DNA from: Candidatus Woesebacteria bacterium RIFCSPHIGHO2_02_FULL_42_20 | GTDB lineage: Bacteria; Patescibacteriota; Microgenomatia; UBA8517 | DNA: 64,000 bases | NCBI GenBank assembly: GCA_001792535.1 | Contig: MGGS01000007.1 | Coordinates: 44-64,043 of the forward strand | Reading direction: 5' to 3' | Part shown: positions 20,727 to 63,526 of the stretch, in pieces | How the letters are laid out: each line of letters opens with the position of its first letter | Numbering within the stretch: position 1 is the stretch's first letter | Position numbers and translations under genes: made by a program | Notes under the pieces: generated by a model | The model's input: only the letters and a program-made list of their open reading frames with translations | What the model was told of the DNA's origin: nothing | Databases searched by the model: none

Positions 20727-20745
20727 TTTGTACAAAGTTACAACG

Positions 20746-35168: not shown

Positions 35169-35180
35169 GGAGCTATTATA

Positions 35181-37464: not shown

Positions 37465-37562
37465 ACAGACAGGCCAAGCGGGCCACTGTTGAACAGCTTT
37501 CCTTTACGTTTTACGTTTTCGAAGTTAAACCTGCCGACGAGTCTATTTTCGCGAGGTAACAC
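37465..37562 (-). pseudogene. rnpA 5' fragment (first 33 codons), duplicate copy fused out of frame to the IS481 remnant
   Basis: Part of repeat copy B. ORF 37254-37562 begins [34 protein letters not shown], identical to rnpA, then diverges. Confidence 0.85.
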
Positions 37563-37695
37563 TCAAAATTTTCCTTCCTTTAAGTCTTTTTCGCTTTAAA
37601 ACATTTCTACCGGACTTGGTCGACATTCGCCTTCGAAAGCCAAATTTTCTCACCCGCCTGATTTTGCTCGGCTGATAAGTTCTTTTGGTTGACAT
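37543..37695 (-). CDS. rpmH: Second, sequence-identical copy of rpmH (L34) within repeat copy B
   Basis: Coordinates are copy A plus 2527. Whole rpmH ORF lies inside the perfect repeat. Upstream flank, and hence the promoter, differs from copy A. Confidence 0.7.
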
Positions 37696-37743
37696 CAACG
37701 TATTGTACCAAATACTTCTGATCTACTCAATCTCAAAAAGCAT

Positions 37744-38567: not shown

Positions 38568-40646
38568 TTAGCACTCGGTTATTTTTTCATTAACCAGTAT
38601 GAACTTTTCAATGTCTTCATTAAACTCCCACCATTTTTCAACACGAGTATCGCTTCCGTGGTCACCGCACTCAAAAAGGTCGTATGCACGTCCTGCAACT
38701 GGATCGAATCTCCCTATCCAATCAGAATACAATCTCACCGAGTCCGTGGAAACATCATATCCGACTACCAAATTTTCATAAAAGCCGCAGCCACCCGAGG
38801 TCGTTGTCAAAATAAATTCATTTGCATTTCCATCACCTGTATAGTCCTTCAAATCAATCAGCTCTTCGACTTTTAATTTATTCTTGGTAGCGTCCCGATA
38901 ATCTTCATAGTCATAGTTGACGTAAACAAGCGCCAGCTTGTCTTCGCTTTCAAAATTGGCCAGATTTGGAACATTTACGTCACTTATAATCTTACCGTCT
39001 TCAACTAACGCGGCATGGTAGTCCCCAATCATCGCCTGGCCAAGAATCTGTGTGGGGCAAGAGATATTTTTGTAATTAGGGTCTCCTAATCTATATTCCT
39101 GTTCTAAATAAACAACTATGTACTTATCTTTGTCAAGTTTTTTAAAGTCGCGCAAAAATGCTCCATGCACCAAACTGTTTTCCAGCACCTCCCTAATTGT
39201 CTGCTCAAAAATATCAGGAGGATCAAACCAAGAAGGCATGTCTCCTTTTAATCGAATAAGTTGATCGCTCGGAAAACTGGAGATTACTAACTCTGCTTTA
39301 TCTTGGAACATAAAAAGCTTTTTATCGGGAGAGATCAAAAAATCAGACGGACCGGACAATTTCGGAGAATATTCCGGCGCAATCTGCATCAAATTTCCCG
39401 TCTCTAGGTTGTATATGCTTGTTGTCCCCTTCGCATCTAAGTAACCATTTACTTGATTAATTAAGATATTGGATTCATCAATCCAAGAAAAATACAAATT
39501 TTGCGCCTGAATGTTTAAGGCTTTTGGTACTAAAATCTCATCGGACAAAACCTCATCCAAGGAAACAACAGCGAGTCCGAATAAATTCTCGGTATCGTAA
39601 AACTCGCCCTCTTTGTAAATAAATGCAATATTTTCACCCGACGGAGACCACTGTGAATCTCTTAAGTAAGCATTGCCAACACCAACTCGGAGCAAGTGCT
39701 CTTTGGATTCATTTGTAGAAACAACCTTTTCTCCCAAGTTGGAAAAACTCTTTATAAAATAGTTTCTGTTTGGCGAATATTTTACTGTCGGGTCAAAATA
39801 TATACTGCTTCTATAAAAATCCGTTTTGGTTGCGCTTTTTCTATTTCCTTCGAGATCGGCGTAAAAATAATCTACCCTATCTGGCATTAAACCGGCCTGT
39901 TCGCCGATCAAAATCGGATTGTTATTCTGATATTTCTCATTAAAATATAGCCCCAAAGAATCCTTTGACCAAAAGACGTCTCCAAAAACCTCGGCAATTA
40001 AAAGTTCGCTTTGATAAGTTTCAAGGTCGATGACGTAAAGTAAGTAATTAAAACCAGCAGTTGTTGCCTTAGCTTCGGGTATAAGCGAAAAACTTGACTT
40101 TCCGCCATATTCGCCCTGAACAAGCGTTGCCAAGTATTTCCCGTCGGGTGACCACAAAAAGGGGTAGACATAACCATCCACTCCAAGGTCATATTCCTTG
40201 CTTGTTGCAAAATCATACAACTTCGGTCTGCCGTCAGCGCCGTTAAAGGCGAGTTTATTCTCAAAATAATTGCCGCTCAGAGAGTTAACGTCTGAATCTT
40301 CTGTTTCCTTTGAATCAGGCCAAAATGAACGAAATGTTGTTAAAGAAACCACCACACCAAACAAAAGACTGGCAACCAAAATCAATTTCATCCATTTAGA
40401 GCTGATTGCCTCCTTACCCGAGGATTTGAAAATCTTTGCAACAACAAACTTGGAAACTAAAAATAAACAGCTAACAAAGGCCGGAAAAAATAAAGGCGGC
40501 AGCAATATACCGCTGTAGATTATTCCTACAAATAAACCTTCTAGGCCTTCTCTGCTCCCAATCCAGAGTTTCAAAACAAGTAAAGCAGCCACAAACGCTC
40601 CGCCGCTTATCCAAAAAACTTTCTTCAAAAGTTGATTTTCGGTCAT
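38568..40646 (-). CDS. Membrane-anchored protein with large extracytoplasmic TolB/PD40-like beta-propeller region
   Basis: 692 aa. Three N-terminal TM helices. Recurrent WSPDG/SP.G..IAF-type blades (LWSPDGKYLATL, QWSPSGENIAFI, LISPDKKLFMF). Confidence 0.55.
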   Translation of the reverse strand: MTENQLLKKVFWISGGAFVAALLVLKLWIGSREGLEGLFVGIIYSGILLPPLFFPAFVSCLFLVSKFVVAKIFKSSGKEAISSKWMKLILVASLLFGVVVSLTTFRSFWPDSKETEDSDVNSLSGNYFENKLAFNGADGRPKLYDFATSKEYDLGVDGYVYPFLWSPDGKYLATLVQGEYGGKSSFSLIPEAKATTAGFNYLLYVIDLETYQSELLIAEVFGDVFWSKDSLGLYFNEKYQNNNPILIGEQAGLMPDRVDYFYADLEGNRKSATKTDFYRSSIYFDPTVKYSPNRNYFIKSFSNLGEKVVSTNESKEHLLRVGVGNAYLRDSQWSPSGENIAFIYKEGEFYDTENLFGLAVVSLDEVLSDEILVPKALNIQAQNLYFSWIDESNILINQVNGYLDAKGTTSIYNLETGNLMQIAPEYSPKLSGPSDFLISPDKKLFMFQDKAELVISSFPSDQLIRLKGDMPSWFDPPDIFEQTIREVLENSLVHGAFLRDFKKLDKDKYIVVYLEQEYRLGDPNYKNISCPTQILGQAMIGDYHAALVEDGKIISDVNVPNLANFESEDKLALVYVNYDYEDYRDATKNKLKVEELIDLKDYTGDGNANEFILTTTSGGCGFYENLVVGYDVSTDSVRLYSDWIGRFDPVAGRAYDLFECGDHGSDTRVEKWWEFNEDIEKFILVNEKITEC

Positions 40647-50145: not shown

Positions 50146-52009
50146 TTTGTCCTCCTCGGTCTAATATTACACCGCCCTTGGCTCTCTGCTGCATCTCAAG
50201 CTTCTCCTGCGGCTTGGTGGTGACCAGTCTATGTTCTTGAGGAGAAGAAACGACTCTAATCGGTGCTCTGTGGGGTCCCGCAAAGAAGATCCCTTCTCCC
50301 ACATCAGCCGACATAAGGAGTTGTTTTTCTCCTTGAGACAGATAAAAAACTTCGGTAATCGAGTCCATAGCTGCAGCTGACTGTTTGAGTAAAAGCTTGA
50401 GCGAGGAATTGGTCAGAATTGCTTTACCCAAGTCGTGATTCAAAAAATCCTCAACGTCTTGGGTGATGGTGGTTAAGCCCATATAGTATTTTCTGGCTCG
50501 CTTCACCATTGACCACATAAAGGTAGCGGAATCCGGATGCCGCATCATCTGCCAAGCCTCATCGACAATCAAAATTCGCTTTTTAAGGTCTTTTTTGACT
50601 CTTGTCCAGACGTAGTCAAGAATGATAAACATGGCAATGGGCCGCAGGATGTCTTGCAGGTCGTTAACAGAAAAGACTGTAAAGGAATTGTCGAGCGAGA
50701 CATTTGTCTGTTTGTCAAACATGCCAACAAAGCTCCCTTTGACATATTTTTCAATTCTGGCAGCCAGGTCCAGTGCCTCGTTTGTTTCCATGCCGATGAG
50801 GGTTTTATAAAGGTCTTCCATCAAGGGTGGCTCTTTGTTTTGCGTTTCCGGATATTGGGTTATGCCTTTGTTGCGGTATGTTAGTACCAGCGCCCGGTCA
50901 AGCAATGCTTCACGAATAGGATCAAGCTCTCCCATGATTACTTTAAAAAGGGAATGCAGCGACAAAATTTTAAGGCCGAGCTGATTCTCACCTTCTTCAC
51001 GAACCTGTGCCAGGTCAAAAGGATTAATCTTGGACTGAGATGAGAACGAAAACGACACGTATTCACCGCCTACAGCGTCGCAAAGTGCCTTATATTCAAA
51101 TTCTGGGTCTAGTATTATAATTTCGGCGCCAAGCATCAAGGAACGCACTGCTTCCAGTTTTACGAAATAACTTTTGCCGGCGCCTGAAGTTGCAAAGACC
51201 GTCATGTTATAGTTTTCGAGAGAAAACCTGTCAAAGATGATAAATGAATCGTTTTCGGGATTAATACCATAAAGGACCCCCCTGTCGCTTGAGAGTTCGG
51301 TTGACGTGAAGGGGAAAGTTGTGGCGAGGCTGGTTGTGTCCATATTGCGTGTGACCGAGATTCTGTCTAAGCCAAGCGGCGATGTCGTCAGAAACCCGTT
51401 TTCTTGATCCAAAGCTGCCGTTCTACCGTTAATTAATAATGCACCAAGAGTGGAAAGAATTTGTTTAGAGACGTCATTTAGCTCGTCGATTGTCGCGGCT
51501 GGTATTGTAATGTAGAACGCAAACTCAAAAAATCGTTCAATTCCTTTGACAAGCTCTTCTTGCAATGCCTTTGCGTCATCAAGTTTTGCTTCGGTTGTTG
51601 CGTGGGCAATTCGGCCCCGCTCAATGTCGGTCTCGATTTCGGCTTCCATTTCCGTAATTTTTCGCCTAAGGTCGTCGAGAATTGTTTTTGCGTCGATAGG
51701 ATAGATATAGAAGGCGATATCCAAGGAACTGTCAAAATTCACGACAGGATCAAGCCAACCCGGGGAAACAAATCTAGGGTAACCCGATACATAAAGAGTT
51801 CTATAGTATTTACCGTTGATTATCAAGTAATCAAACTCTTCTTCAATCGTATTTGGAGAAATTATGTCAATGAGATAACTCTTTTTGGCAAGAAAATTGT
51901 CTACCGGCTTACCCATGGCTGGCTTGTATTGCTGGCTGTTAAGTTCGCCTGTTTGCCCTTTTTGCGCTGTGGTTTGAGCGTTAATTTGGTTTTGCTGGTT
52001 CGGGTTCAT
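50138..52009 (-). CDS. virB4: VirB4/TrbE/CagE-family type IV secretion ATPase (Gram-positive DUF87/AAA_10 type)
   Basis: Walker A FATSGAGKSYFVKLEA, Walker B RILIVDEAWQMM. 623 aa. Operon context with PrgI-like and a cell-wall hydrolase. Confidence 0.8.
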   Translation of the reverse strand: MNPNQQNQINAQTTAQKGQTGELNSQQYKPAMGKPVDNFLAKKSYLIDIISPNTIEEEFDYLIINGKYYRTLYVSGYPRFVSPGWLDPVVNFDSSLDIAFYIYPIDAKTILDDLRRKITEMEAEIETDIERGRIAHATTEAKLDDAKALQEELVKGIERFFEFAFYITIPAATIDELNDVSKQILSTLGALLINGRTAALDQENGFLTTSPLGLDRISVTRNMDTTSLATTFPFTSTELSSDRGVLYGINPENDSFIIFDRFSLENYNMTVFATSGAGKSYFVKLEAVRSLMLGAEIIILDPEFEYKALCDAVGGEYVSFSFSSQSKINPFDLAQVREEGENQLGLKILSLHSLFKVIMGELDPIREALLDRALVLTYRNKGITQYPETQNKEPPLMEDLYKTLIGMETNEALDLAARIEKYVKGSFVGMFDKQTNVSLDNSFTVFSVNDLQDILRPIAMFIILDYVWTRVKKDLKKRILIVDEAWQMMRHPDSATFMWSMVKRARKYYMGLTTITQDVEDFLNHDLGKAILTNSSLKLLLKQSAAAMDSITEVFYLSQGEKQLLMSADVGEGIFFAGPHRAPIRVVSSPQEHRLVTTKPQEKLEMQQRAKGGVILDRGGQSG

Positions 52010-52697
52010 TTTCCTCCCTTTCTATTCTTCGCTCGGTTAAAGTTCCGCTTTTTTCTTCTTCACCAATGTTATAGATTTGGTAAAAAAGCTCAACAAGTTG
52101 TGTAGTTGAAAGCTGTTTAAGCACAAGTCCGGCTCTTGAGGACTGGCGTATTAGGTGGTCTCTTTTTGGATAAAGGGAAACCTTGGCTTTTTTTACAACA
52201 TAATCCTTATTGTAAGGTAGTGGGCCCTTTTTTTTCTTTATGCTCGATGTAAATGATTTACTTAGCCCGAGCTCGAGTGCCGAAAAGGGTGCAACAATGA
52301 AAAACCTTTTTCCCAAAACCTGTTTTTTCTTTATAGTGTCTTTGATGAACACTTTGTATGTTTCCATGAGCGAAGCCAGTTTTGGACCTTTTATTTTTTT
52401 GGATTCTTGGTCTAGGTACATCAAGTAATTGGTAATGTCTTTTCGCTCAGACCGGATAACTATTTGGACAGGGAATGTTAGGCTGTTTAAAAAAGCTGCG
52501 TACGCCAGAATCACCGCTTTTTGCTCGGCAGGTGAGAGTAAACCGAAATTGAGTGATGTAGATTCTAAAACGATGCAGGCAGAGCCGTCTTTAAGGTAAA
52601 CAATGCCGTCTGATATTTCGGCTATAGGGACGTGCACCTGGGTCGTAGATCTGATTGGACTTTCTTTTACTTTAAACAGTGTTTTAATTAGGTTCAT
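51981..52697 (-). CDS. T4SS-associated hypothetical protein (238 aa), possibly a split N-terminal VirB4 domain or accessory factor
   Basis: Located between the PrgI-like gene and virB4, with a 29-nt overlap. ISDGIVYLKDGSACIVLESTSLNFGLLSPAEQ weakly resembles VirB4 N-terminal regions. Confidence 0.4.
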   Translation of the reverse strand: MNLIKTLFKVKESPIRSTTQVHVPIAEISDGIVYLKDGSACIVLESTSLNFGLLSPAEQKAVILAYAAFLNSLTFPVQIVIRSERKDITNYLMYLDQESKKIKGPKLASLMETYKVFIKDTIKKKQVLGKRFFIVAPFSALELGLSKSFTSSIKKKKGPLPYNKDYVVKKAKVSLYPKRDHLIRQSSRAGLVLKQLSTTQLVELFYQIYNIGEEEKSGTLTERRIEREENEPEPAKPN

Positions 52698-52699
52698 GC

Positions 52700-53647
52700 T
52701 TATTTTGCTCTCACCGCAATTGGAGGTACCAGCTCCCCTTCAGTTTTGAGTTTGATCGGCTCAAAGTCAAAACCTTCTTTTTCGACTAAGATTTTATAGT
52801 CGCCGTCGGCAAGGGGAGTAATCACCATAAAATGCCCCGCTTTATTGGATTTTAAGGCTCTGACAGGGCGACCTTGGTTATCTTTAATTTCAAGTATCGC
52901 TCCCTCGATTATTTTTTTGTCCTTGTCCATCACTTGGCCGACGATAGTATTGGGCAGCGTAGGCGGGCTTGGCGGGGCCGCATCTGGCGAGAATTGGGCC
53001 TGGGTTCCCTCTATTTGCCCCCTTGCAACAAGCGTTTGGTCGACCGCTTTAGTGGTAGCCTGGCCGGGTGGTGCTGCAGGCGTGCTTTCGGGAACCTTTT
53101 GTTTCTCAACTGCTGTGGGGACGCGGGAGGGAATAGCGCCGCTGATAGTGGGTACCGGCTGGGCAGACACTATTGGGTTGTGATGGAGCAAAAAGAGGTT
53201 TCCGATATTTTGCAAAATCGAGCGCTCTGACCGCTCCAAGTTTAGTTGTAAGTTAACTCTTGGCTCCTGGTTCGGTTGGATGTTTTCTGGACTGGTGGGT
53301 GTTACAGTTGTGACTGTTTTGGTTGGCTCCTGAAAATAAACAGGCTCTTTTTCTGTTTTTTTCCAGATAAACTCTGTCGGTGTATAAATTGCTTTAAAGA
53401 AAATTACAATCCAGGTTTCAAGTGGCCTGTCTTCGATGGTGAAAAAGGCGAAACCCACTCCGAGAAGAACAAACAGAGCAACAACTGGCCATTTGACAAT
53501 TGGTGGAAGTGGCGACGCGTAGGTGAGCAAGCCTAATACAACTCCCATCGCTACTTGGAAAAACTGCTTTAAGGTCATGTCGCCAACCAGCCTGAAGCTG
53601 TAGCTTGAGATTTGCTGCGGTATCGGGTGTTCCTGTTCAATTTCCAT
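52700..53647 (-). CDS. PrgI-family (VirB3-like) T4SS membrane protein fused to a C-terminal carboxypeptidase-regulatory-like beta-sandwich domain
   Basis: HPIPQQISSYSFRLVGDMTLKQFFQVAMGVVLGLLTYASPLPPIVKWPVVALFVLLGVGFAFFTIEDRPLETWIVIFFKAIYTPTEF matches the PrgI pattern (P.dIS.YE.K..G.lTlRQ..., second TM, G.P.E.W). C-terminus EGAILEIKDNQGRPVRALKSNKAGHFMVITPLADGDYKILVEKEGF resembles CarboxypepD_reg. Confidence 0.45.
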   Translation of the reverse strand: MEIEQEHPIPQQISSYSFRLVGDMTLKQFFQVAMGVVLGLLTYASPLPPIVKWPVVALFVLLGVGFAFFTIEDRPLETWIVIFFKAIYTPTEFIWKKTEKEPVYFQEPTKTVTTVTPTSPENIQPNQEPRVNLQLNLERSERSILQNIGNLFLLHHNPIVSAQPVPTISGAIPSRVPTAVEKQKVPESTPAAPPGQATTKAVDQTLVARGQIEGTQAQFSPDAAPPSPPTLPNTIVGQVMDKDKKIIEGAILEIKDNQGRPVRALKSNKAGHFMVITPLADGDYKILVEKEGFDFEPIKLKTEGELVPPIAVRAK

Positions 53648-53742
53648 GTTTCTCCTTCTAATTTACACCGTGAATAAAAGTTTTTCTACAGCTAGCTAAA
53701 AACCCTTGTGTGAATTTGCAGTTGCGGATATACTTTAGTTAT

Positions 53743-54156
53743 ATGGATCAGCAGGAAGTGAAAGCAAAGATTCAACAACTTAATGATGAGGCTTATAAAA
53801 GAGCCAAAGATAACGGCGTAGAATTAGATTTTACAAATGAAAGTGTAACTACAGTTGAAGCGATTTTACTCGAAATGTTTGAGGAAGCTCAGGGCTTGGA
53901 CTTAACCGAGCAAGACTATGAACGCATGGCCGAGGTTTGGGGGGCTTATTTGGGCGAGTCTTTAATCCGCAACCTCGGTAAGGGTTATTGGGACTTCGAC
54001 CAGGAAAGAAAAGCTTACGTTGTCCGTTTGGACGATTTATCTGTTTATTTTCCGACGGAAGTGTACCAGGTATTAAAAAGTGGGCTCGTTGAAAATGTGA
54101 TTGACCTTTATATTGACGTTTATAACCAACATTCTCCGGTTCCGATCCAACTTTAA
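53743..54156 (+). CDS. Hypothetical acidic protein P1 (~138 aa)
   Basis: Start at MDQQEV (the ORF-track GTG start at 53710 is also possible). No recognised motif. First gene of the plus-strand block inserted in the T4SS-like cluster. Confidence 0.4.
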   Translation: MDQQEVKAKIQQLNDEAYKRAKDNGVELDFTNESVTTVEAILLEMFEEAQGLDLTEQDYERMAEVWGAYLGESLIRNLGKGYWDFDQERKAYVVRLDDLSVYFPTEVYQVLKSGLVENVIDLYIDVYNQHSPVPIQL

Positions 54157-54286
54157 CCATTGATCTTCAGATTTTAGTAGTCTACTATCTTTGATTAGAG
54201 GTTGTGTTTAAGGAATGGGGTGCAAATCCCCAGCTGTGCCGCAACCGTAGAGCCGGAAAACTAGCAACCCTCTGGGCAGAAGGCCT

Positions 54287-55291
54287 TTGGATCCCGAGCA
54301 GGATATGAGTGAAAGACAAGCACTAGACATGTGGGCTTATGCTCGCCCAAATTCGGAAATTGACGAAGCTGGTCTTGGGTATTCATTAACTTCACTCTTT
54401 TTGGAAGCAGGAACAGAGGCGCCTACCTATTACAGAATTAGACTAACTCCCGAAGGAAGAGTTGTCGACGATTTTTCGGATGGAAGAGTAGACGTTCGTG
54501 AGCAAGTTGTTATGGAGGACGAACTTAGCCGTAAGGAAAGTTCTACGACGCTTGCTCGGATAAAGGTTATGCTTCAAAAAAGGGTCGGGACATTGTGTGT
54601 TTGGGTGAGCCCGCCAGGAGGGCCGTATGGCTATGAGGAAGGAAAAATAGACGTCGGCTATGTTACCGAAGAAGGCGGTGTTTTAGTCCATTGGGGTTAT
54701 GGGATAAAGACGCGTTTTGACAAACAGACGCATTTATTAATAGCGTCTAGAATAGGAGAGTTTGCTTTGACGTCATGGCCCTTAAATTCTCCCGAGGACC
54801 TTCGCGACAAACTTTTTGAAATTCAAACAGATGATCCGCTGGCATTGCTTCACGAAATTATACCGATGCCCGAAGCGCTGGACTCTATCGAAAACGGTGA
54901 AGCCAGGAGACTTAGAGAAATGATGTTTCAGAAAGCACGGCACGTTGTGAGGCATGTCAAACCGCTTTTAACTTCGGCAGCGACAAGGTGGGATTACATG
55001 CAGGCCGGTGCCCTGGCCGAGAGAATGATGGTGCAGGAAACGGGGATTGAGATATCCGATGGCCCATGCGGTTTGCTGAATTCAAGCTTGGTTGAGAATA
55101 GAAGCGGTACACAATTTGTTGTCGGTTTTGCCCAAATAGACTTTCGTGGAAAAGTTACTGATGTTTTTTCCGGGTCGGGAAATAGGGAAGGTAAATATGT
55201 CAAAAGCTGCGGCAAGTGCGGCAAATCTATAAATGCAGTTATTTCCAAAGGCTACAAATGCTCCTGCGGCGGAGTGTACGAAGGCTGCTAG
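54287..55291 (+). CDS. Hypothetical protein P2 (334 aa) with C-terminal Cys4-type zinc-ribbon (CGKCGKS...CSCGG)
   Basis: Clean ORF, GC-richer by eye. Ends ...KSCGKCGKSINAVISKGYKCSCGGVYEGC*. No enzymatic motif recognised. Confidence 0.5.
   Translation: MDPEQDMSERQALDMWAYARPNSEIDEAGLGYSLTSLFLEAGTEAPTYYRIRLTPEGRVVDDFSDGRVDVREQVVMEDELSRKESSTTLARIKVMLQKRVGTLCVWVSPPGGPYGYEEGKIDVGYVTEEGGVLVHWGYGIKTRFDKQTHLLIASRIGEFALTSWPLNSPEDLRDKLFEIQTDDPLALLHEIIPMPEALDSIENGEARRLREMMFQKARHVVRHVKPLLTSAATRWDYMQAGALAERMMVQETGIEISDGPCGLLNSSLVENRSGTQFVVGFAQIDFRGKVTDVFSGSGNREGKYVKSCGKCGKSINAVISKGYKCSCGGVYEGC
55245..55291 (+). repeat. Direct repeat copy 1 (3' end of P2) flanking the DUF433-DUF5615/HicB-HicA cassette; copy 2 at 56230-56268
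   Basis: ccaaag...tcctgYggcggagtgtacgaaggctgYtRg. The 23-bp core 55265-55287 versus 56243-56265 differs at 1 position. Both copies read CGGVYEGC followed by a stop. Confidence 0.8.
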
Positions 55292-55312
55292 GCCATGCTA
55301 TAATTCAGGTAT

Positions 55313-55564
55313 ATGGCAAGAAAGATTGTGGTTAATCCTAAAGTTTGTTTTGGCAAGCCCTATTTCGACGGTACTAGAATCCCTGTCGATATGGTACTCG
55401 AGCTTCTTGCAACCGGCATAGAGATTAAAGATATTGTGAAAGACTATTATCCTCGTCTCACGACCAACGATGTTAAAGAGGCTGTTAAATATGCTTCTCA
55501 GGTTGTCAAAAATGAAGAGGTGGTCGTAAACATTCCTCGTATAGGAAAACTGGCTGCGATTTGA
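55313..55564 (+). CDS. DUF433-family antitoxin-like protein
   Basis: CFGKPYFDGTRIPVDMVLELLATGIEIKDIVKDYYPRLTTNDVKEAVKYA matches the DUF433 consensus (cgGkP.i.GTRipV..vl..la.G.s.eeil..YP.Lt.edv.aal.ya). Confidence 0.75.
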   Translation: MARKIVVNPKVCFGKPYFDGTRIPVDMVLELLATGIEIKDIVKDYYPRLTTNDVKEAVKYASQVVKNEEVVVNIPRIGKLAAI

Positions 55565-55571
55565 AAAACAA

Positions 55572-56051
55572 ATGCGCTTGCTTGCAGATGAAAACGTTTA
55601 TTTTGTAATTACTAACCGTCTAAGTGGTCTGGGTTTTTCGGTAACGAGTGTTTATAAAGAAGGTCTTATTTCAGAAAGTGACTTAAATATTTTACTTTTC
55701 GCGCGAAAGAAGAATTTGGTTATTTTAACTCAAGACAAAGATTTTACAGTATTGCATAACGCATATTCCCACAAAGGAATAGTTTTACTGAGGAAAGTTG
55801 ATAAGTCATTAGGAGCTGTTATGGCAAATCTCATTAAGTTTTTGGAAGACGATAAAGGTAAAAGTGTCAAAGACAAGATTATTTCTGCTTTGGGTGTTGC
55901 CGATGATGGTGATACGGTGGAGGAAGCGTTAAGTAATGTCACGGGGGCGATTAAAACTTATGTTGATAGTTTGACTGAGGATAAACTTCCTGTTCCTCAC
56001 GATGAAACTCAAAAAGATATTATTACAACTACCCAGGTTGCCCCAAATTAA
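55572..56051 (+). CDS. DUF5615 (PIN-like, Mut7-C-type) toxin-like domain continuing in frame into a HicB/UPF0150-like antitoxin domain
   Basis: N-terminus MRLLADENVYFVITNRLSGLGFSVTSVYKEGLISESDLNILLFARKKNLVILTQDKDF is the DUF5615 pattern. From MANLIKF the frame continues as DKGKSVKDKIISALGVADDGDTVEEALSNVTGAIKTYVDSLTEDKLPVPHDE, resembling HicB N-domain (PGC.tQGdTlEEAl.n.keAl.l.le.l.edg..iPeP). No stop between the two parts. Confidence 0.55.
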   Translation: MRLLADENVYFVITNRLSGLGFSVTSVYKEGLISESDLNILLFARKKNLVILTQDKDFTVLHNAYSHKGIVLLRKVDKSLGAVMANLIKFLEDDKGKSVKDKIISALGVADDGDTVEEALSNVTGAIKTYVDSLTEDKLPVPHDETQKDIITTTQVAPN

Positions 56052-56226
56052 ACCCCGCCAAATCCAAAAAGTTTTACTTAAGTCAGGATTTGTTCCAAGA
56101 CCAGGAAAAGGGAGTCATACAGTGGTTCCCGTACACAATCGGCCGGTCAGAATAGGCACTTTGTATTCAATTCTTGGCCAAGCAGGGATTAAAGTCGGCG
56201 ATTTCCTGAAACTTCTGAAGAAGTAA
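56002..56226 (+). CDS. hicA: HicA-family mRNA interferase toxin
   Basis: IQKVLLKSGFVPRPGKGSHTVVPVHNRPVRIGTLYSILGQAGI matches HicA (l.k.Gf...rqkGSH..f.h.....tvP.H....l..gtl.sIlkqaGl). Start could be the ATG at 56002 or the TTG at 56038. Confidence 0.75.
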   Translation: MKLKKILLQLPRLPQIKPRQIQKVLLKSGFVPRPGKGSHTVVPVHNRPVRIGTLYSILGQAGIKVGDFLKLLKK

Positions 56227-56229
56227 TTG

Positions 56230-56268
56230 CCAAAGTTTTCCTGTGGCGGAGTGTACGAAGGCTGTTGA
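56230..56268 (+). repeat. Direct repeat copy 2 (relic of the P2 3' end) immediately upstream of mntA
   Basis: See 55245-55291. Confidence 0.8.
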
Positions 56269-56287
56269 AAATGGTACCATTAGGGCA

Positions 56288-56599
56288 ATGAAAGTAAATA
56301 ATAAGCAGGAAATATTGGAATTACTAGCCGGGAATAAATCTACCTTTTCAGGTTATGGAATAAAAAGGATTGGTTTATTCGGTTCGTTTGCGCGTGGTGA
56401 GCAACACGAAGGAAGTGATATAGACCTATTAGTAGAATTTGATAAAAAGAAAAAAAACTTTAAGAACTTTATTAAGTCAGCAGAATATGCGGAAAGTCTC
56501 CTGGGAAGAAAAGTTGAATTTTTAACCCCCGAATCGGTTAGTCCGTATATTTTTCCCTATATAGAGAAAGAAGTAAATTATGTCCAAATCTCCGGTTGA
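56288..56599 (+). CDS. mntA: MntA-type nucleotidyltransferase antitoxin (second copy in window)
   Basis: IGLFGSFARGEQHEGSDIDLLVEF. The longest-ORF N-extension (MAECTKAV...) is the repeat relic, so the start is taken at MKVNNKQ. Confidence 0.8.
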   Translation: MKVNNKQEILELLAGNKSTFSGYGIKRIGLFGSFARGEQHEGSDIDLLVEFDKKKKNFKNFIKSAEYAESLLGRKVEFLTPESVSPYIFPYIEKEVNYVQISG

Positions 56600-56924
56600 A
56601 TACCTGAAACACATTTCAGATGAAATTGATTACTTGGCTGAAACTACGGAAAGTCTGAGTGAACCTGATTTTGCAAAAAACCTTACTTTACAGAAAGCCT
56701 TTGTTAGAAGTTTGGAAATTATTGGTGAGGCAGTTAAGAACTTGCCTGAAGATTTCAAAGTTAAATATTCGCAGGTAAATTGGAAGTCTTATGCAGGTTT
56801 ACGGGACAGGTTAATCCATCATTATTTTGGTGTTGACTACGGGATTGTCTGGGATGTGGTCAAAAACGAAGCACCGGCATTAAAAGAAAAAATTAGTAAA
56901 ATTATTGAAGTACTTCGTAAATAA
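56580..56924 (+). CDS. hepT: HepT-type toxin (DUF86; Rx4HxY), second copy
   Basis: GLRDRLIHHYFGVD. 114 aa. Overlaps mntA by 20 nt. Confidence 0.8.
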   Translation: MSKSPVEYLKHISDEIDYLAETTESLSEPDFAKNLTLQKAFVRSLEIIGEAVKNLPEDFKVKYSQVNWKSYAGLRDRLIHHYFGVDYGIVWDVVKNEAPALKEKISKIIEVLRK

Positions 56925-56977
56925 TAAATCGTATTTTGTGTTGTTTGTTTCTCCCCCGGCTGATATAATTTGGGTGT

Positions 56978-59269
56978 ATGGTAGATGTAGATGACGAAGC
57001 ATTGCTACGACAGCCTGAGAATGCAGAAAATGGTTCTGAAGAACAAAGGCGTCTTTTTATGTTCAGGCCAGAACTCTACACAGTAAATGGTGCTGATTTA
57101 ATTGAGAATGTGAAATCGGCCGAGATAGGCGAAAATGGCGACATTAGTGAATTAAGTGCTGCTGTAGACGAGGCTCTTGCTTATCAGGAAGGATTGGTGT
57201 TGGGATCAAGGCTTTCTTTGCTTGAAATAGACCATCCCTTGGCAGATGAGCTAATTCAGGCCGTTGATACTTTATATAAAATTACATACGATCCTCAAAA
57301 ACCGGCTCCCGATGAAATAGAAAAGATTAGGAAAGCAGACAAAAGAGGCATTTTAGACTATCAAGTTGTCCAAGACTTTGCTTTTGGGTTGGCATCGGCC
57401 AGAAAACAAGCGGAAGCTGATAATCCTACCGATACCAATCGGAGGGAGGAGCAATTTAGAGAAGCGCATAAAGTTATGGAAGACTCGTCCAGAACACTCG
57501 CCGAACTGTTAAGTGACGAGAGCCGTGCCACTCTAAATCTTTACAAGGACATGTTCACCAACGCGAGGACAATGATTGAGAGACCTGATCCCAGAGGCAA
57601 CTTGATGGATGCCATTGAACACGCTTTGTCAGAGCCTGTGCGGAGGGCAAAAGAGTATGCTCGTGATAGGAAAGGCTGGGCCGAGAAAGAAAAGAGGAAA
57701 AGAGTAAAACAATACACAAGGCAGAATATGGCCGACAGAAATCCAAGGACAAGAATGTCTGAAAAGGAGATACCTGCCCTGGTAGATCTAGAAATAGAGG
57801 AAGAGGAAGAGAAGTTGCAGCGGTATGCTGAAGCCGCTCCTCACTTAGTCCGAAAATTGGCTCATGTGACAGCAAGAAGACATAACGATGAAATGTTTAT
57901 ACACCGTACGCAAGTTGGTGGAGATAAAGACAATGAGCCTAAAACTAATGAATATATGTCTGGCAGAATTCCTTTAATTGACTCTGAAGACTTCATTGCT
58001 GAGTACAGATACTCCGGCGAGTGGGGCAAAAAGGTGGACACTGTCATGAAAGAAATGCTTTTTGTGGCTCTTGGGAAGTATGAAACAAACGACCCTAAAA
58101 CTAGCATAAGCAGAGATGCTTATATAGACGGATTTACTACGGATGCTTTTAAAGGGTGGCTTACACCGATGTTACGGAAAGCCGGTGGAGACATGAGTGT
58201 GGTCTGGGCAGCTTGGCGGAATTTATTAACAAGTGAGCTCTTACTACCGTTTACCATGAAGGTAGTAGATACAGAGGTCAAAGATAAAGATGGTGGAGTT
58301 CGTAGAGAGAAGTCTTATAAGTTTGCCGATCCCCCGATTGCTACAGATTTAGGATCGCATTTGTATTTTTTTGAGGAGCACAGGAGAGACGAAAGGGGAA
58401 TAGATCCGGATGGTATAAGGCATCCAAGTAGGCCTTATTCCCGAGTTTCTCATTTTGGACATCCTTTTAACATGGGCAAGATATCAAGAGGTGAGGATGG
58501 TGCACCAAAGCCGCTTGTAGGCTCTTACTTTGAAGGTGCCAAAGTCAAGAACTGGCCAACTGGTAAGACTGATAATTCTGGACAACCCCTAAAAGGTGAA
58601 ATGCCACTTTATAATATTTGGATGGGGACTTCGGTGAGAAAGATGCAGGAGATTAGAGGGAGAGGTTGGCAAATGAGTGACGAAACGATTTTTGATAAAG
58701 GGGTTAGTCTTGCAGATAAGAAATTTCCCTTTGATGATACTGAAAAGCGCGATCCTAAAGACGCAAACGAGCCCGGTTCGGCTTCTTTTACTGCTTGGTA
58801 TGTTATTATAAGGTCTAGATGCGCCCAGATCAGAAAGATGATTTTAGGGTTTCCGCACGATGTAAAAGACATGGAGGGGACGACATTCCAGGAGGGTTTC
58901 CGAGCATTGGATAAGATGAATATGGTACGCCCCGACCACGAAATAAATCCAGATGACTTAGATCCCAAAGACCCTTCATTGTGGTTTCTGGCAAGTGTCT
59001 TGATATACCTTCACCCTGAAACCGCTGCACAATTGGAAAAAAGAGATTTTATGGTAAAATCTCGTATCGGTAAGCATAGGTTGTATAAATCCATAGCTCC
59101 GCCAATAATAGGTAAGACAGCACCGGTTCCCGCAGCCAGTGGAAGGACAGACGTGGTGAGTATGTCATCGGGTAATATCTACGAGAATTGGCAGACAGTA
59201 GGCTTGATTGGAGGCAACAAGAGAGCTTGGTTGGCCAACAATATCTTGTCGGAAACCCGGTTCACATAG
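56978..59269 (+). CDS. Large hypothetical soluble protein P3 (763 aa), no recognisable domain
   Basis: Uninterrupted ORF, GC-richer by eye. Acidic N-terminus, Lys/Arg-rich segment (KEKRKRVKQYTRQNMADRNPRTR), EEEEE tract, His-containing patch RHPSRPYSRVSHFGHPFNMG. No Walker A, HUH, DDE or RT motifs found. Confidence 0.5.
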   Translation: MVDVDDEALLRQPENAENGSEEQRRLFMFRPELYTVNGADLIENVKSAEIGENGDISELSAAVDEALAYQEGLVLGSRLSLLEIDHPLADELIQAVDTLYKITYDPQKPAPDEIEKIRKADKRGILDYQVVQDFAFGLASARKQAEADNPTDTNRREEQFREAHKVMEDSSRTLAELLSDESRATLNLYKDMFTNARTMIERPDPRGNLMDAIEHALSEPVRRAKEYARDRKGWAEKEKRKRVKQYTRQNMADRNPRTRMSEKEIPALVDLEIEEEEEKLQRYAEAAPHLVRKLAHVTARRHNDEMFIHRTQVGGDKDNEPKTNEYMSGRIPLIDSEDFIAEYRYSGEWGKKVDTVMKEMLFVALGKYETNDPKTSISRDAYIDGFTTDAFKGWLTPMLRKAGGDMSVVWAAWRNLLTSELLLPFTMKVVDTEVKDKDGGVRREKSYKFADPPIATDLGSHLYFFEEHRRDERGIDPDGIRHPSRPYSRVSHFGHPFNMGKISRGEDGAPKPLVGSYFEGAKVKNWPTGKTDNSGQPLKGEMPLYNIWMGTSVRKMQEIRGRGWQMSDETIFDKGVSLADKKFPFDDTEKRDPKDANEPGSASFTAWYVIIRSRCAQIRKMILGFPHDVKDMEGTTFQEGFRALDKMNMVRPDHEINPDDLDPKDPSLWFLASVLIYLHPETAAQLEKRDFMVKSRIGKHRLYKSIAPPIIGKTAPVPAASGRTDVVSMSSGNIYENWQTVGLIGGNKRAWLANNILSETRFT

Positions 59270-59277
59270 TTTTCTTA

Positions 59278-61128
59278 TTAAGCTACATCCTCTTTTTTAG
59301 TTACTGGTTTGGAAGCGGTTGTAGAACCTTTTCCTTTCTGGCCAAATTTAGGCATTTGGAACGGTGCCAACGGCGTTCCGGCTTCTTTTTCTTCACCTGG
59401 CACTTCCCTTCGCCACCACTGCGCTGCCGTTCCGGCTTTTGTACCAAACTTACCCACTCCTCCAACTACGGACCCTAGAACAGCTGACCCCTTGAGTCTT
59501 GTGCTGAATCTGGTTTTTGCTCCAGAGATACGTGTTCTTGCTGGTTCTGTGGCTCTTGCTACATAACCCCCTGCCCTTGTTCTTGCAAATCTTCCGCCAA
59601 CCCAACCGGCGGCTCCGCCGACAACAGCGGAAGTTGCGCTAAGGCCTGGAATAAGCCCTTTCAAAGTTCCGCCCGAAGTTCCAAATCTCATAAATCTACC
59701 CATGGCTTCACCGCCAAAACCTTTACCAACAACTGCACCAAGAGCAGCGGCGCCCAAGAGCTCTCCCCCATACTGGCCGCGAATGCCCAGTATAAAGTTT
59801 TTAGCCGCTTGGGAAAGGCTGGGCGTTGCTATCATTGTTGCCAGCCCTACCAAAAAGCCTATCGTAGCTGTGTCGCCAAAGCTAAACCCCGGGAGAATAC
59901 CCGTCCCTCCGACACCAGCCAACGAAAGTATATAGAAAGGATTGATCATTGGCCAGGTTTGAAGCACGCCGTAATACCCGTCCGGTGCCATTCCCCAAGC
60001 AAAAACATGGGCAGCAAAAACAAGGAAAGTTGCCATTACAAACACGGACAGGTTTGCGATAACGTGCTTCAGCCAGAAAGTGAAGCCGATCTGTTGGGCA
60101 ATTAATCCGCCCAGAATTATGAACGGGCCCGCAATGATCATAATCAAAAGCGTCGCATAGGCTTTAAGAAGCGTCCAGAAAATCCTGAATATGGTAATGA
60201 ATATTACCAAAAATAGGATTAATGACAGGATAAAATCCATTATATTACATAGAAGTGGAACTCTGGTTATTACACAGGCAATGCCGCCATATAATGTCGA
60301 TCTAATTATAGTGAGCCATGCGTAGGCGATAGTTCCACCGTTGATGTCTTGCAGTCTTGTGAAGGTAAATGAAGCTGCTCCTGTGGGGTCTAGTAAGCCT
60401 GAAGCTCTGGCAATTGAAACAACAATGCCTTGGGTAAGAAAGGCAAGATCGACCAGAAGCCCGGCGATTGCATAAGAAAATGTTATTAAAATAAGAACCA
60501 TTGCAATTTTAGGGATAGCTGACTGAATAGTAATCACAACTCTGGGCGCTATTTGAACCCGAAACATGATCAAGAATGCCATGATAATGATTACAAAGAT
60601 TAGGAATGTGTATGCAACGTTTCTCGTAGCCAACCACAAGGCTCTTGCAGGGACTAATGCGGAACTATAACCAAATCCTTGAGCGTTGGCCTCAGGGATT
60701 AGATGCAGGTCGGCAGCTGTGCTGGCAATATATTCGAGCCCGGACGCTGGTTTTTGATTGAGCAGAAGATCAGCGTATGATGCCAGCGAAAGGAGCGCAC
60801 CGGGGCTCTTATTACTGCTAATGGCCCCCGACCCTGGAACAAACATATCAGCGCACTCTGGTATTGTTTCAAAAATGCCATCTGAGACGTCAAGGCAGCG
60901 GTAAACGTCCATCGGTATAAACCAGAAGATAATGCTCATTATTATCCATCTGGTCTGTGCATAGGTGTACCTTTCACCGTATACTTCAGCGTCAGGAGGC
61001 TCTGCCACCCGATCGGCAAACTCGCCCATACTAGGTTCCCACCAAGTCTGTGCGATGGCTGTTGTGGGGAGGAACAGAGTATGAAAAGCAAAGGCTGCCA
61101 GAAGGACGATAAAGACCGATTTTTTCAT
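59278..61128 (-). CDS. Polytopic membrane protein with signal peptide, extracytoplasmic N-domain, ~6-7 TM helices and Gly-rich C-tail; VirB6/TrbL-like T4SS channel candidate
   Basis: 616 aa. Signal peptide MKKSVFIVLLAAFAFHTLFLPTTAIAQ. Multiple long hydrophobic helices. C-terminal GxGG-rich low-complexity region. Placement next to pilin-like genes and T4SS operon supports a VirB6-type role, with no strict motif. Confidence 0.4.
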   Translation of the reverse strand: MKKSVFIVLLAAFAFHTLFLPTTAIAQTWWEPSMGEFADRVAEPPDAEVYGERYTYAQTRWIIMSIIFWFIPMDVYRCLDVSDGIFETIPECADMFVPGSGAISSNKSPGALLSLASYADLLLNQKPASGLEYIASTAADLHLIPEANAQGFGYSSALVPARALWLATRNVAYTFLIFVIIIMAFLIMFRVQIAPRVVITIQSAIPKIAMVLILITFSYAIAGLLVDLAFLTQGIVVSIARASGLLDPTGAASFTFTRLQDINGGTIAYAWLTIIRSTLYGGIACVITRVPLLCNIMDFILSLILFLVIFITIFRIFWTLLKAYATLLIMIIAGPFIILGGLIAQQIGFTFWLKHVIANLSVFVMATFLVFAAHVFAWGMAPDGYYGVLQTWPMINPFYILSLAGVGGTGILPGFSFGDTATIGFLVGLATMIATPSLSQAAKNFILGIRGQYGGELLGAAALGAVVGKGFGGEAMGRFMRFGTSGGTLKGLIPGLSATSAVVGGAAGWVGGRFARTRAGGYVARATEPARTRISGAKTRFSTRLKGSAVLGSVVGGVGKFGTKAGTAAQWWRREVPGEEKEAGTPLAPFQMPKFGQKGKGSTTASKPVTKKEDVA

Positions 61129-61180
61129 TAGAATTAATTTAATACCATACCGGTTAATTTATCAATTATCAATTTAATAG

Positions 61181-63526
61181 TTAACCGCAGCAGACGCTGT
61201 TGCAAACGGCAGAGCATTGTGCGCCTGTTTCGGATGCGTCGCGTCTTACGCACACATTAGGGTTTGCGTAATAGCACCCATTGAAATCCGGATCGTCGTA
61301 AGTGTCAGGATCCCAGGTCTGTCTGTTGAGCCATTTGCATCCTGTCGAGCAATCTGCAGTTGGTACCGAGCATGGGGGAACATGATCAGTATAGTCTTTT
61401 GCCGGGCCCCATTCATAGGGGTTGCAACGCCTGCTTTCGCAGACAGGGTCTGTACAAAGTGTGGAGCTGTTAACCGGCTGCGGTCCACCGTATGAGGCGA
61501 TGGTGTCTATAGGGCAGTCGCCCCTTGGGTTACTACCTGAGTCATTTGTAAGAATTTCTTGGCATCTTCCACCGGGCACAAAATAATCGCACGAGCTGGT
61601 AACAGGATTCCAGTTGCAGGCGATAGGAAGTACAGCAGGCGGCGGTCGGCTTGCGAGTTGGCGGACGCGAGCCGAACTGGAATAGGGCAAAAGAGCTTCT
61701 CGGATACCTATCAAGAAATATTCGTAAATGCCTCCCAGGTGGGGATAGAATATGTCGGCGCGAGCCCCGGACCTTGTGAAGTTCCCTGCAAAAACTTGAA
61801 TATCAAGGTCGGTGGAGCTGTAGTTGGCTGTAGTTACTCCCGGCAGATCAAGTATTTCAAATGCTAATGTACCGATGTCGTCGGGAACGGGAATTATTCT
61901 AGGATAAATTCTTCTGAACACCGATTGCCTGCTTTCAACTGACCTTCCCCAGATTTCATCAAGTAATGGAGTCCTGGTATAGACCGAAAAAGGCGCGGTG
62001 GCAATTAGCACATCACAAGGAGGTATTGTACAAATTGCCGAACATTCGTTTCTACAATCGGTATATTCTGTTGCACAGCCAGCAATACATGTGACATCTC
62101 CTCCACAGGTGTTTTCACAATTTGTTCTTTGGGTTATACAGGTTGAGTCGCAAGCTGAAAAACACTCTGCTTCGCCGCAGTATTGAGTTCCACCCAAAGC
62201 AAAACAGGGTTTTTCGAAAGTACACTCAAAAGTGGAGGTGTAGGAAAAATCTCCGCTTATGTCCGGTTGTGGACTGATTTCGCCAAAGACATCGTCGCCA
62301 GTATTCCATCTCACGTTTGTCAGATCGCACCTATTCGTATTATAGTAGAGCTCGTCCCTGACTTCGGTGTAATTTACAGATAATTGCAGCGGCAGATAAG
62401 TTTGCGAAAGTATGTCAAGTAGGTCTCTGGATTCTTCCAGGTGGGAAAGGTATAGCCAGTCAATATCTCGGTCGGTAAATGTGTTATCAACAAATTCCAT
62501 TGTTGGGCCATAAATTTGAATATTGTCCGCATCAGACGGCGGTTGCGGGGGTTGAACTGGTATTGGACCTGTTGCTGCGTTTTGAAGATCTATTCCTCTG
62601 TATGTTTCGACAGACGAAGTCCTGTCCTCGGTAGACGACAATGGTACCAATGGAAAAGAGCTGATGAATGGTCGATCAATCCAAAAATCACCATTTAGAT
62701 AACTGAGCGCGCTAACCATTGGGAGGTAAATATCTGTAGTTCTTCTTTCTACGCTTCCCGGTACACCGCAAGGTACGGGACCCCTGAAGGGACCTGAAAC
62801 CAGCTCGCATTCCACTTTTTGGTTGTGTCTGGAGTTACCTGTCCTGTCTGCGGCGGCGATTTTATCGCGAAGCAGAACCTGGATAGGAAGAAGCTTGTTT
62901 AACGGTCCTGAATAAGTAGAAATTAGTCTGGCGCACTCGTCTGGGTCATATGACCCGCCAGTTAAAGATGAACACACTGAGTAGAAATAATCCGTTTCTT
63001 CCATGCGAAACATGGGCCCGTTCAAGTACCAGCTGACATACTCGGCTGTTCGGCGGTTATAAGCTAGGTTTTCAGGCTGTGGGTTGCCGTTGTTGACTTG
63101 ATTTGGAACAAGTTGTGTATTGCCCATGATGGGCAGCTCTGCATCGGCAAGATTGACTGAGGTTTGATAAGTTGACGGTCTCTCGTAGTAGCAAGTAAGG
63201 GTGGTGGCACTGTCTACACAGTAGACTGTGGTGTTTGCACCACCAGCCGGGGTTACTTGAAAAGATTCTAATCCAAGGTAGTCGTTTCCGCAGTAGAGCC
63301 TTGCAGGTTCAAGTGGGCGGCTCCAGGGGTCAGTCAAAACAGGAGGGGTTCCACCGAATTCACACGGACTTGCTTGATAAGGCCGCAGGGTGTGAAATTC
63401 TGGACTGCGAACGTCGCTGCAGCGGATGTAAGGCGGGGGAATCTGAGCGCTCACGCGACCAAATGATTTATGATAAATGATGTACGAGGTAAGAATGAAT
63501 ATAAAAAACAAAATCTTAAATCTCAT
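61181..63526 (-). CDS. Large secreted Cys-rich surface protein (781 aa), hypothetical; possible adhesin / pilus-tip component of the T4SS-like system
   Basis: Signal peptide MRFKILFFIFILTSYIIY. More than 50 Cys, many in CxxC/CxC clusters. No TM after the signal. Confidence 0.5.
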   Translation of the reverse strand: MRFKILFFIFILTSYIIYHKSFGRVSAQIPPPYIRCSDVRSPEFHTLRPYQASPCEFGGTPPVLTDPWSRPLEPARLYCGNDYLGLESFQVTPAGGANTTVYCVDSATTLTCYYERPSTYQTSVNLADAELPIMGNTQLVPNQVNNGNPQPENLAYNRRTAEYVSWYLNGPMFRMEETDYFYSVCSSLTGGSYDPDECARLISTYSGPLNKLLPIQVLLRDKIAAADRTGNSRHNQKVECELVSGPFRGPVPCGVPGSVERRTTDIYLPMVSALSYLNGDFWIDRPFISSFPLVPLSSTEDRTSSVETYRGIDLQNAATGPIPVQPPQPPSDADNIQIYGPTMEFVDNTFTDRDIDWLYLSHLEESRDLLDILSQTYLPLQLSVNYTEVRDELYYNTNRCDLTNVRWNTGDDVFGEISPQPDISGDFSYTSTFECTFEKPCFALGGTQYCGEAECFSACDSTCITQRTNCENTCGGDVTCIAGCATEYTDCRNECSAICTIPPCDVLIATAPFSVYTRTPLLDEIWGRSVESRQSVFRRIYPRIIPVPDDIGTLAFEILDLPGVTTANYSSTDLDIQVFAGNFTRSGARADIFYPHLGGIYEYFLIGIREALLPYSSSARVRQLASRPPPAVLPIACNWNPVTSSCDYFVPGGRCQEILTNDSGSNPRGDCPIDTIASYGGPQPVNSSTLCTDPVCESRRCNPYEWGPAKDYTDHVPPCSVPTADCSTGCKWLNRQTWDPDTYDDPDFNGCYYANPNVCVRRDASETGAQCSAVCNSVCCG

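Follow-up and report, generated by a model that had tools for sequence, protein, structure and literature searches.

Displaced copies of a gene 3' end in a stack of toxin-antitoxin cassettes of Candidatus Woesebacteria

Integron arrays are made of ordered small cassettes with a repeated element between them, and new cassettes enter at the proximal end; the toxin-antitoxin (TA) cassettes of the Vibrio superintegron have their own promoters and stabilise the array. Integrative elements target the 3' ends of genes (tRNA, tmRNA and protein genes), carry a replacement 3' end and form tandem arrays. Homology-facilitated illegitimate recombination in transformable bacteria combines a homologous anchor with a microhomology join and involves no mobile-element enzyme. 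Insertion with long target duplication of restriction-modification gene complexes was reportedly described by Nobusato et al. in 2000. The spread and accumulation of chromosomal TA operons are still debated. Here we analyse one site of accumulation in Candidatus Woesebacteria, a lineage of the candidate phyla radiation (CPR). It lies in a 64-kb stretch of contig MGGS01000007.1 (the window), in which the 3' end of P2, a gene of unknown function, occurs a second time downstream, behind a block of TA genes and directly in front of the TA pair mntA-hepT.

Among the known phenomena, insertion with long target duplication appears to be the closest. It has been described for restriction-modification gene complexes without mobility genes (Furuta, Abe and Kobayashi 2010, PMC2853133). 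Its flanking repeats are longer than 30 bp, variable in length and single-copy in the genome with the empty site, and they often overlap the 3' end of a neighbouring gene, with 46-bp examples in Haemophilus influenzae (PMC2853133). Most cases come from naturally competent species (PMC2853133).

In this study, we show that the P2 locus and its relatives form a natural step-by-step record that leads from an empty site to one, two, three and four TA cassettes. Each step has left a displaced gene tail behind, and there is no obvious mobile-element enzyme at the site. We favour, somewhat above even odds, an explanation by repeated recombination with related genomes, in which the P2 tail would provide the homology anchor, the other end would be joined at microhomology, and TA addiction would favour stacking.

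The repeated P2 end and the series of related loci

P2 and the two copies of its 3' end are arranged as follows.

54305..55291, + strand: P2, a conserved 328-amino-acid protein of unknown function
55237..55291, + strand: copy 1, the functional P2 3' end; core 55262-55291, including the TAG stop
56222..56268, + strand: copy 2, a non-coding relic of the P2 3' end; core 56239-56268, ending in TGA, with an 8-nucleotide (nt) deletion in its upstream part

A repeat search of the window aligned 55262-55287 with 56239-56264 as a direct repeat of 26 nt (25/26 identical, 96%). This repeat, claimed by the initial annotation of the window, is real; the match extends to a 30-nt core that ends in the stop codon in both copies and, past an 8-nt gap, to a further stretch (agttatttccaaag versus agtaattgccaaag) with 12 of 14 positions matching. 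Given the similarity across the gap, the relic comprises about 56222-56268 and is the counterpart of the last 55 nt of P2, and the stop codon of hicA overlaps with its beginning. Read in the frame of P2, copy 1 (tcc tgc ggc gga gtg tac gaa ggc tgc tag) and copy 2 (tcc tgt ggc gga gtg tac gaa ggc tgt tga) both encode SCGGVYEGC followed by a stop. The argument that all differences are synonymous is weak evidence, because the orthologous relics of loci L251, L021 and L255 carry V to M and C to Y changes. As proof of two functional P2 alleles, synonymous-only differences were rejected, the sites being too few and the orthologous relics having non-synonymous changes.

The 17-mer GGAGTGTACGAAGGCTG has exactly two occurrences in the 64 kb, against a chance expectation of 0.06 even with up to three mismatches. 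A P2 relic lies at the same position in the independent assemblies L001, L252, L254 and L256, the first three with the window's version and L256 with that of L255, and an orthologous relic precedes mntA in L021, L251, L255, L256 and L258-L264. Altogether, at least 10 independent assemblies, derived from several samples, contain the structure; the Joint Genome Institute (JGI) contig L254 is 100% identical to window positions 51315-61599. Against such recurrence, chance similarity or an assembly artefact as the source of the second copy is scarcely credible, and the earlier dismissal of a chance or low-complexity match was justified. The one point in favour of an artefact is that assemblers struggle at the site: in L253, a gap of 10 N (about 2966-2975) exactly replaces copy 1.

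L001 differs from the window at a single one of 4376 nt, by a V to A change inside copy 1 (window-equivalent position 55276). Together with the gap in L253, this suggests population heterogeneity or assembly trouble at copy 1. Rfam has no match at the repeat itself, and viral contigs have none to its core. Scans of metagenome and genome collections with the 17-mer, a pattern too short for this use, gave nearly all matches by chance; the only real ones were L021 and L208.

Concerning the arrangement of genes behind P2, the related loci present a series of natural states. The hicBA cassettes are numbered throughout.

L006 (P2 40% identical): P2 stop, 56 nt, P3; the empty site
L002 (P2 47% identical): P2, hicB-hicA (number 3), P3
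L251: P2 end, spacer, hicB-2 (90 amino acids), hicA-2 (75 amino acids), P2 relic, spacer, mntA-hepT; hicBA-2 is intact and the relic is the same as in the window
L021, L255 and L258: P2, hicBA-1, relic 1, hicBA-2, relic 2, mntA-hepT, relic 3, hicBA-3, relic 4, P3

The last three are overlapping contigs of one sister lineage, in which the P2 tail occurs five times and TA cassettes number four. At the place of the additional cassette and relic of L021 and L255, L251 has a single P2 end followed by intact hicBA. The duplicated unit of L255 measures about 95 nt and runs from the P2 codons for V-I through the stop, the spacer and the ATG to the first 21 nt of hicB. The search for an empty site, which the initial annotation had proposed, succeeded in part: P2 followed directly by mntA-hepT was not found, but the P2-P3 empty site (L006), the P2-hicBA-P3 state (L002) and richer arrays were.

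Within the sister lineage, relic 4 (beside P3) is by far the most decayed and relic 1 (beside P2) the least, a gradient that fits cassette addition at the P2 end. Decay rises toward P3 overall, yet relic 3 is less decayed than relic 2; the order of addition is blurred because of gene conversion between relics. Relics 2 and 3 share the derived GGAATG. L260 carries, between two mntA-hepT units, a hybrid relic that resembles relic 3 on its left and relic 2 on its right, and L256 is a mosaic of two strain types. By all appearances, the relics themselves recombine.

In the window, the spacer between hepT and P3 (56925-56977) holds tttctcccccggc, which shows a weak alignment, lacking about 25 nt, to the beginning of relic 4 in L258 (gttcctctgcggcgg). 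It may be a further, very decayed P2 relic.

Cassette genes and their order of arrival

The interval from P2 to P3 contains the following genes in the window.

55313..55564, + strand: DUF433 (COG2442) antitoxin-like gene (Pfam PF04255, E=1.2e-20)
55572..55887, + strand: DUF5615 (PIN-like) toxin-like gene (PF18480, E=1e-18; PIN_10, E=2e-4)
55888..56051, + strand: 3' remnant of hicB-2, its last ~55 codons, fused in frame to DUF5615
56038..56226, + strand: crippled hicA-2, delimited by a three-way alignment with L251 and L021
56288..56599, + strand: mntA, nucleotidyltransferase antitoxin (PF01909, PF18765), with its true start at ATG 56288
56580..56924, + strand: hepT, HEPN RNase toxin (PF01934, E=3e-26)
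56978-59269, + strand: P3

The DUF433 and DUF5615 genes are 7 nt apart behind one promoter and would qualify as a PIN-COG2442 type II TA pair, a combination that two papers (PMC3834315, PMC2701414) put forward as a VapBC-family TA system. The PF18480 match covers residues 1-93 of the DUF5615 product and profile positions 1-94 of 110; the gene is without its own last codons and stop, its C-terminus being replaced by a fragment of HicB. The alignment with the intact hicB of L251 and L021 begins at about 55888, the remnant is 87-92% identical to intact HicB (tblastn), and Pfam detects DUF5615 plus a weak match to the HicB C-terminus in the open reading frame (ORF) 55572-56051. Downstream, a deletion of 50 nt at 56032-56035, between CCCA repeats, took the hicB stop and the hicA ATG, and an in-frame deletion of 30 nt at about 56118 removed 10 core hicA codons. 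The HicA Pfam match (56002-56226) is gapped, with 44 residues against 56 profile positions. Lacking the 5' half of hicB as well as the ATG and 10 codons of hicA, the HicAB of the window is not an intact type II TA pair; in L251, L021 and L255 both genes are intact.

mntA and hepT overlap by 20 nt, as a type VII MntA-HepT system does. An alternative mntA ORF of 118 amino acids with a GTG start at 56243 begins inside the relic; the closest MntA homologues, of 103 amino acids, have their start codon at the counterpart of ATG 56288. This marks the N-terminal extension as spurious, just as the initial annotation had supposed of this by-product of copy 2. For annotation more widely, such relics yield false N-terminal extensions, like this 118-amino-acid call, and break assemblies. 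In L250 (2950-3610), a 71% identical mntA-hepT lies at an unrelated locus between fusA and rpsG, and reading of the sequence upstream of it revealed no P2 relic.

The initial annotation had taken the ~950 bp between the copies for one mobile DUF433-DUF5615::HicB-HicA cassette, inserted in a single event in place with duplication of a ~35-bp target. The window alone speaks for this, since the copies bracket exactly the block of DUF433, DUF5615::HicB and HicA. The same relic with intact hicBA, and with neither DUF433 nor DUF5615, is present in L251, L021 and L255; the fusion and both deletions in the window are secondary, and the hallmarks of transposition are missing. A single event of this kind is thus very improbable, L251 in particular calling for two. 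A transposon-style target-site duplication likewise did not hold up: the repeat search found no terminal inverted repeats at the cassette ends, no transposase or integrase lies in the interval, and the duplications are long and variable, the relics ranging from ~35 to 55 nt between events. What withstood comparison is the core of the original proposal, that copy 2 is the P2 3' end displaced by an insertion between P2 and mntA.

Because L251 combines intact hicBA with the same relic, the repeat is to be ascribed to an older insertion, that of hicBA-2, which predates the split between the window and L251 (~8-10% divergence in mntA). DUF433-DUF5615 arrived later, replacing the spacer and the 5' half of hicB, fusing in frame and leaving no new repeat. 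Step by step, mntA-hepT would first have come to lie behind P2; hicBA-2 then entered in front of mntA-hepT and left the resident P2 tail as a relic, the state that L251 displays; finally, DUF433-DUF5615 entered with its right-hand join inside hicB-2, which truncated hicB and made it part of a fusion, and hicA is by its sequence a dead gene today. As this join fell inside hicB-2, no new relic formed. The only cassette without its antitoxin, hicB-2, also has an inactivated toxin; a dead toxin alongside a lost antitoxin is what addiction-module logic would predict.

Recombination, stacking and the alternatives

We propose that the P2-P3 interval is a hot spot for the pile-up of TA cassettes, each with its own TGnTATAAT leaderless-type promoter. 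The donor DNA would come from a related genome in which another cassette occupies this position. The left crossover would be homologous and fall in the conserved last 30-55 nt of P2, and the right end would be joined illegitimately, through microhomology of a few bases, to a point that precedes the resident P2 stop by 35-55 nt, by way of homology-facilitated illegitimate recombination or of single-crossover integration of a circularised fragment. The product would read P2, new cassette, P2 relic, old cassette, with copy 2 as the old P2 tail displaced downstream by a new cassette directly behind P2. Loss of the resident TA operon or of its promoter would presumably be lethal, and since that would kill the cell, surviving recombinants would keep the old cassette, which would give stacking instead of replacement. 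The record supports such a rule, that cassettes which cannot be lost get stacked, not replaced. The relics could then act as portable homology for further shuffling.

Several features of the locus agree with this proposal. Microhomology is seen at the junctions, both between the end of hicA-2 (gaagaagtRatt) and P2 (gaggcagtaatt) and between the end of hepT (acaaaaatg) and P2 (tacaaRtg). Between the window and L251, 13 of 25 third-codon positions differ just upstream of the P2 tail, and the 10 third positions of the last codons show no difference, the last 33 nt of P2 being identical; the third-position divergence in mntA and hepT is ~0.2. The P2 tail has the look of a boundary between differently related DNA and, with it, of mosaic ancestry. 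No integrase or recombinase was found among the 38 ORFs scanned across the 64-kb window or inside any cassette; the sole mobility gene among the scanned ORFs, an IS4/5 transposase, lies 20 kb away.

Gene-end relics do not appear to be specific to P2. A second TA pair of the window stands between two copies of another gene end.

18978-20726: VanW-like gene, the last ~60 codons and stop of which recur 1.86 kb downstream
20864-21142: Phd-family antitoxin, between the VanW-end copies
21108-21506: VapC PIN toxin, between the VanW-end copies

The VanW-end copies (20549-20728 versus 22409-22588) comprise 180 nt, are 76% identical and have an in-frame stop; a TTGACA-18-TATAAT promoter and an ORF of 204 amino acids also lie between them. 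Their differences are distributed over the codon positions as 8/7/21, which implies that the copies diverged mostly as coding sequence in separate lineages before they were joined. Such a codon-position test for two alleles is significant only at this locus. The pattern indicates two alleles and not an in-place duplicate, and directly supports recombination between lineages. At the rpmH-rnpA locus (minus-strand genes), a duplicate of 257 nt (34929-35185 versus 37456-37712, 96% identical) consists of rpmH and the first 34 codons of rnpA and flanks a 101-amino-acid ORF, a DedA/VTT gene and an IS4/5-family DDE transposase (35626-36363). Another repeat (35234-35295 versus 38578-38639) has 62 nt and 81% identity.

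Some observations weigh against recombination at microhomology as the explanation. In five different cassettes the distance from the preceding P2 or relic stop is 3-5 nt and the promoter spacing is the same, and several breakpoints coincide at ~33 and ~52 nt before the stop; this regularity would equally fit a defined recombination site. The state in which P2 is followed by mntA is missing from the related loci, the donor genomes are hypothetical, and the model does not explain how each cassette first came to lie beside a P2 gene. Moreover, most comparison contigs are metagenome assemblies of 1-2 kb, L260 and L256 could be chimeras, the recombinase search covered 64 kb of the genome, and addiction-driven selection presupposes toxins that are predicted ones.

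The regularity would be accounted for by a site-specific cassette platform, integron-like or composed of tandem integrative elements. The last ~30 nt of P2 would then be an attachment site, at which a recombinase encoded elsewhere inserts circular TA cassettes with a matching site, each insertion restoring P2 and leaving the old site as attR. It would suit such a platform that up to five copies of a well-preserved 30-nt core occur in one array at equal distance to the next promoter and ATG, that the core is well kept in relics 1-3, that the breakpoints recur as described, and that new cassettes join beside P2, as at an integron attI. We nevertheless hold it to be an unlikely alternative. The absence of an integrase or recombinase from the scanned ORFs and from every cassette tells against it, as does a core without inverted repeats and without an attC-like or terminator-like hairpin (single-stranded DNA folds of six copies or strands, z-scores -0.3 to +2.3). 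Left junctions and relic lengths differ, and the junctions show microhomology. The two unrelated window loci with the same kind of flanking duplication, of 180 nt and 257 nt, also argue against a dedicated P2 site, and across distant family members the P2 tail is conserved as protein, not as DNA. Family-wide conservation of the P2-tail DNA beyond the protein constraint was rejected, as synonymous sites vary among distant members.

More doubtful still is the notion that the P2 tail and the adjoining promoter make up a dedicated, integron-like cassette-acquisition site in CPR bacteria that stacks promoter-bearing defence or TA cassettes. Its action, by an unrecognised recombinase or by host recombination on a ~30-nt portable site, and its extension to other gene ends such as the VanW locus, are just as speculative. 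If it were true, the same acquisition process would operate at other gene ends of the genome.

The constant spacing between the repeat and the next gene leads to the promoters of the cassettes.

55296..55304, + strand: extended -10 box TGCTATAAT, 8 nt before the DUF433 ATG, a leaderless-type promoter
56272..56280, + strand: degenerate extended -10 box TGGTACCAT, 7 nt before the mntA ATG
56961..56969, + strand: extended -10 box TGATATAAT, 8 nt before the P3 ATG, at the distal edge of the cassette stack

After every P2 end or relic in the related loci the layout is the same: the stop is followed after 3-4 nt by a TGnTAnAAT box, and this after 6-8 nt by the start codon ATG of the next gene. TGNTATAAT has only 3 sites on the + strand of the window, 2 of them at this locus. 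The TGGTACCAT box is identical in the window, L251 and L021, the TGATATAAT element also precedes P3 in L002, L006 and L258, and the mntA-hepT of L250 has its own promoter, TGCTATAAT-N8-ATG. A sigma-70 scan missed the TGnTATAAT promoters because they have no -35 box. Elsewhere in the window, TAnAAT boxes stand 5-8 nt before the start codons at 11869, 33647, 44498, 55313, 56978 and others, with no room for a ribosome-binding site, which suggests that leaderless transcripts may be frequent in this genome.

Compatible with recombination and stacking, although doubtful in itself, is a role of the relic cores as functional promoter parts. Each -10 box is preceded, at a distance of 17-18 nt, by an invariant TGTACG, which TA operons might keep because their antitoxin has to be expressed without interruption. 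No copy departs from the spacing between this element and the -10 box, not even relic 4 (TATACG), the most decayed of all; the core is retained, and the relic sequence on its upstream side has suffered deletion or scrambling. However, only 3 of the 6 positions of TGTACG fit the -35 consensus, and an extended -10 promoter can usually do without a -35 box. The divergence of relic 2 between lineages, 5/30, is similar to the third-position divergence in neighbouring genes (~0.2), so that there is no measurable extra constraint on the core; purifying selection on the relic is, by this comparison, unsupported.

P2 itself has a zinc-ribbon-like CxxC...CxC tail, and conservation within the family is by far the highest over its last ~34 residues. 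It has no Pfam or NCBIfam match, and only about 10 homologues were found among 5.8 billion proteins. A PDB search with its AlphaFold2 (AF2) model (predicted local distance difference test score, pLDDT, 81) gave no fold match below E=1e-3; the weak matches are PAS-like. A recombinase or nuclease function of P2 was rejected on the outcome of both kinds of search. Just upstream of P2 (54199-54270, +) there is an AdoCbl-II cobalamin riboswitch aptamer (RF01689), scoring 34.6 bits against a gathering score of 36.5 (E=1e-6 in a search of 301 nt) and, being below the gathering threshold, absent from the whole-window scan at that threshold. A similar leader precedes a P2-like gene in L208, and the P2 family may be regulated by vitamin B12. 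In this distant genome (L208, 690-3310, minus strand), the P2-like gene is intact (258 amino acids), and an internally deleted P2 pseudogene (middle and C-terminus, then TGTTATAAT) follows 1.8 kb downstream; efp and an epmA-like gene lie between the two on the opposite strand.

As to the chromosomal setting, dnaA and dnaN are located at 45-48 kb and type IV pilus genes (PilB, PilC, PilM/N) at 1-10 kb of the window, and VirB4/TraG-like and PrgI-like genes stand just upstream. Genes for this type of pilus would be in keeping with an uptake of DNA.

Comparison with known systems

With integrons the locus shares an ordered array, a repeated separator and TA cassettes with their own promoters. It differs from them in that no intI was found among the 38 window ORFs, nor an attI or an attC hairpin, and in that the element repeated here is coding sequence, the 3' end of a resident gene, with imprecise junctions. 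As in integrative elements, the gene is kept intact by an incoming 3' end, the displaced end forms a direct repeat, and reuse of the site gives tandem arrays. In contrast to these elements, there is no integrase in the cassettes or nearby, the cassettes measure only 0.6-1 kb and their boundaries vary; a block of identity is present, but the left junctions differ between relics. The parallel with homology-facilitated illegitimate recombination lies in one homologous anchor and one microhomology join. Here, however, the join would lie upstream of the anchor end and yield a duplication, not a deletion, to judge from the sequences.

Insertion with long target duplication remains the nearest counterpart, an addiction-type gene pair without a mobility gene being flanked in both cases by repeats at a gene 3' end. 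Measured by the definition of Furuta et al. 2010, the repeat exceeds 30 bp if the 30-nt core is taken with its gapped part (~47-55 nt), and the duplications in L255 (~95 nt) and at the VanW locus (180 nt) are longer. A single copy in an insert-free relative is provided by L251 versus L021/L255 and by L006, the window's own state of P2 before mntA being absent from the loci compared. The insert is shorter than 20 kb (0.95 kb) and contains no mobile-element gene, only TA domains according to Pfam. Restriction and modification genes are absent, the cargo consisting of DUF433/DUF5615, HicAB and MntA/HepT. In a full-text literature search, insertion with long target duplication turned up together with toxin-antitoxin only in papers citing the restriction-modification work. 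The locus thus departs from the described cases by its type II TA operons, by up to four cassettes and five repeat copies at one site, by a CPR host and by repeat copies that apparently come from different alleles. In these respects, it would extend insertion with long target duplication from restriction-modification genes to TA systems and to CPR bacteria.

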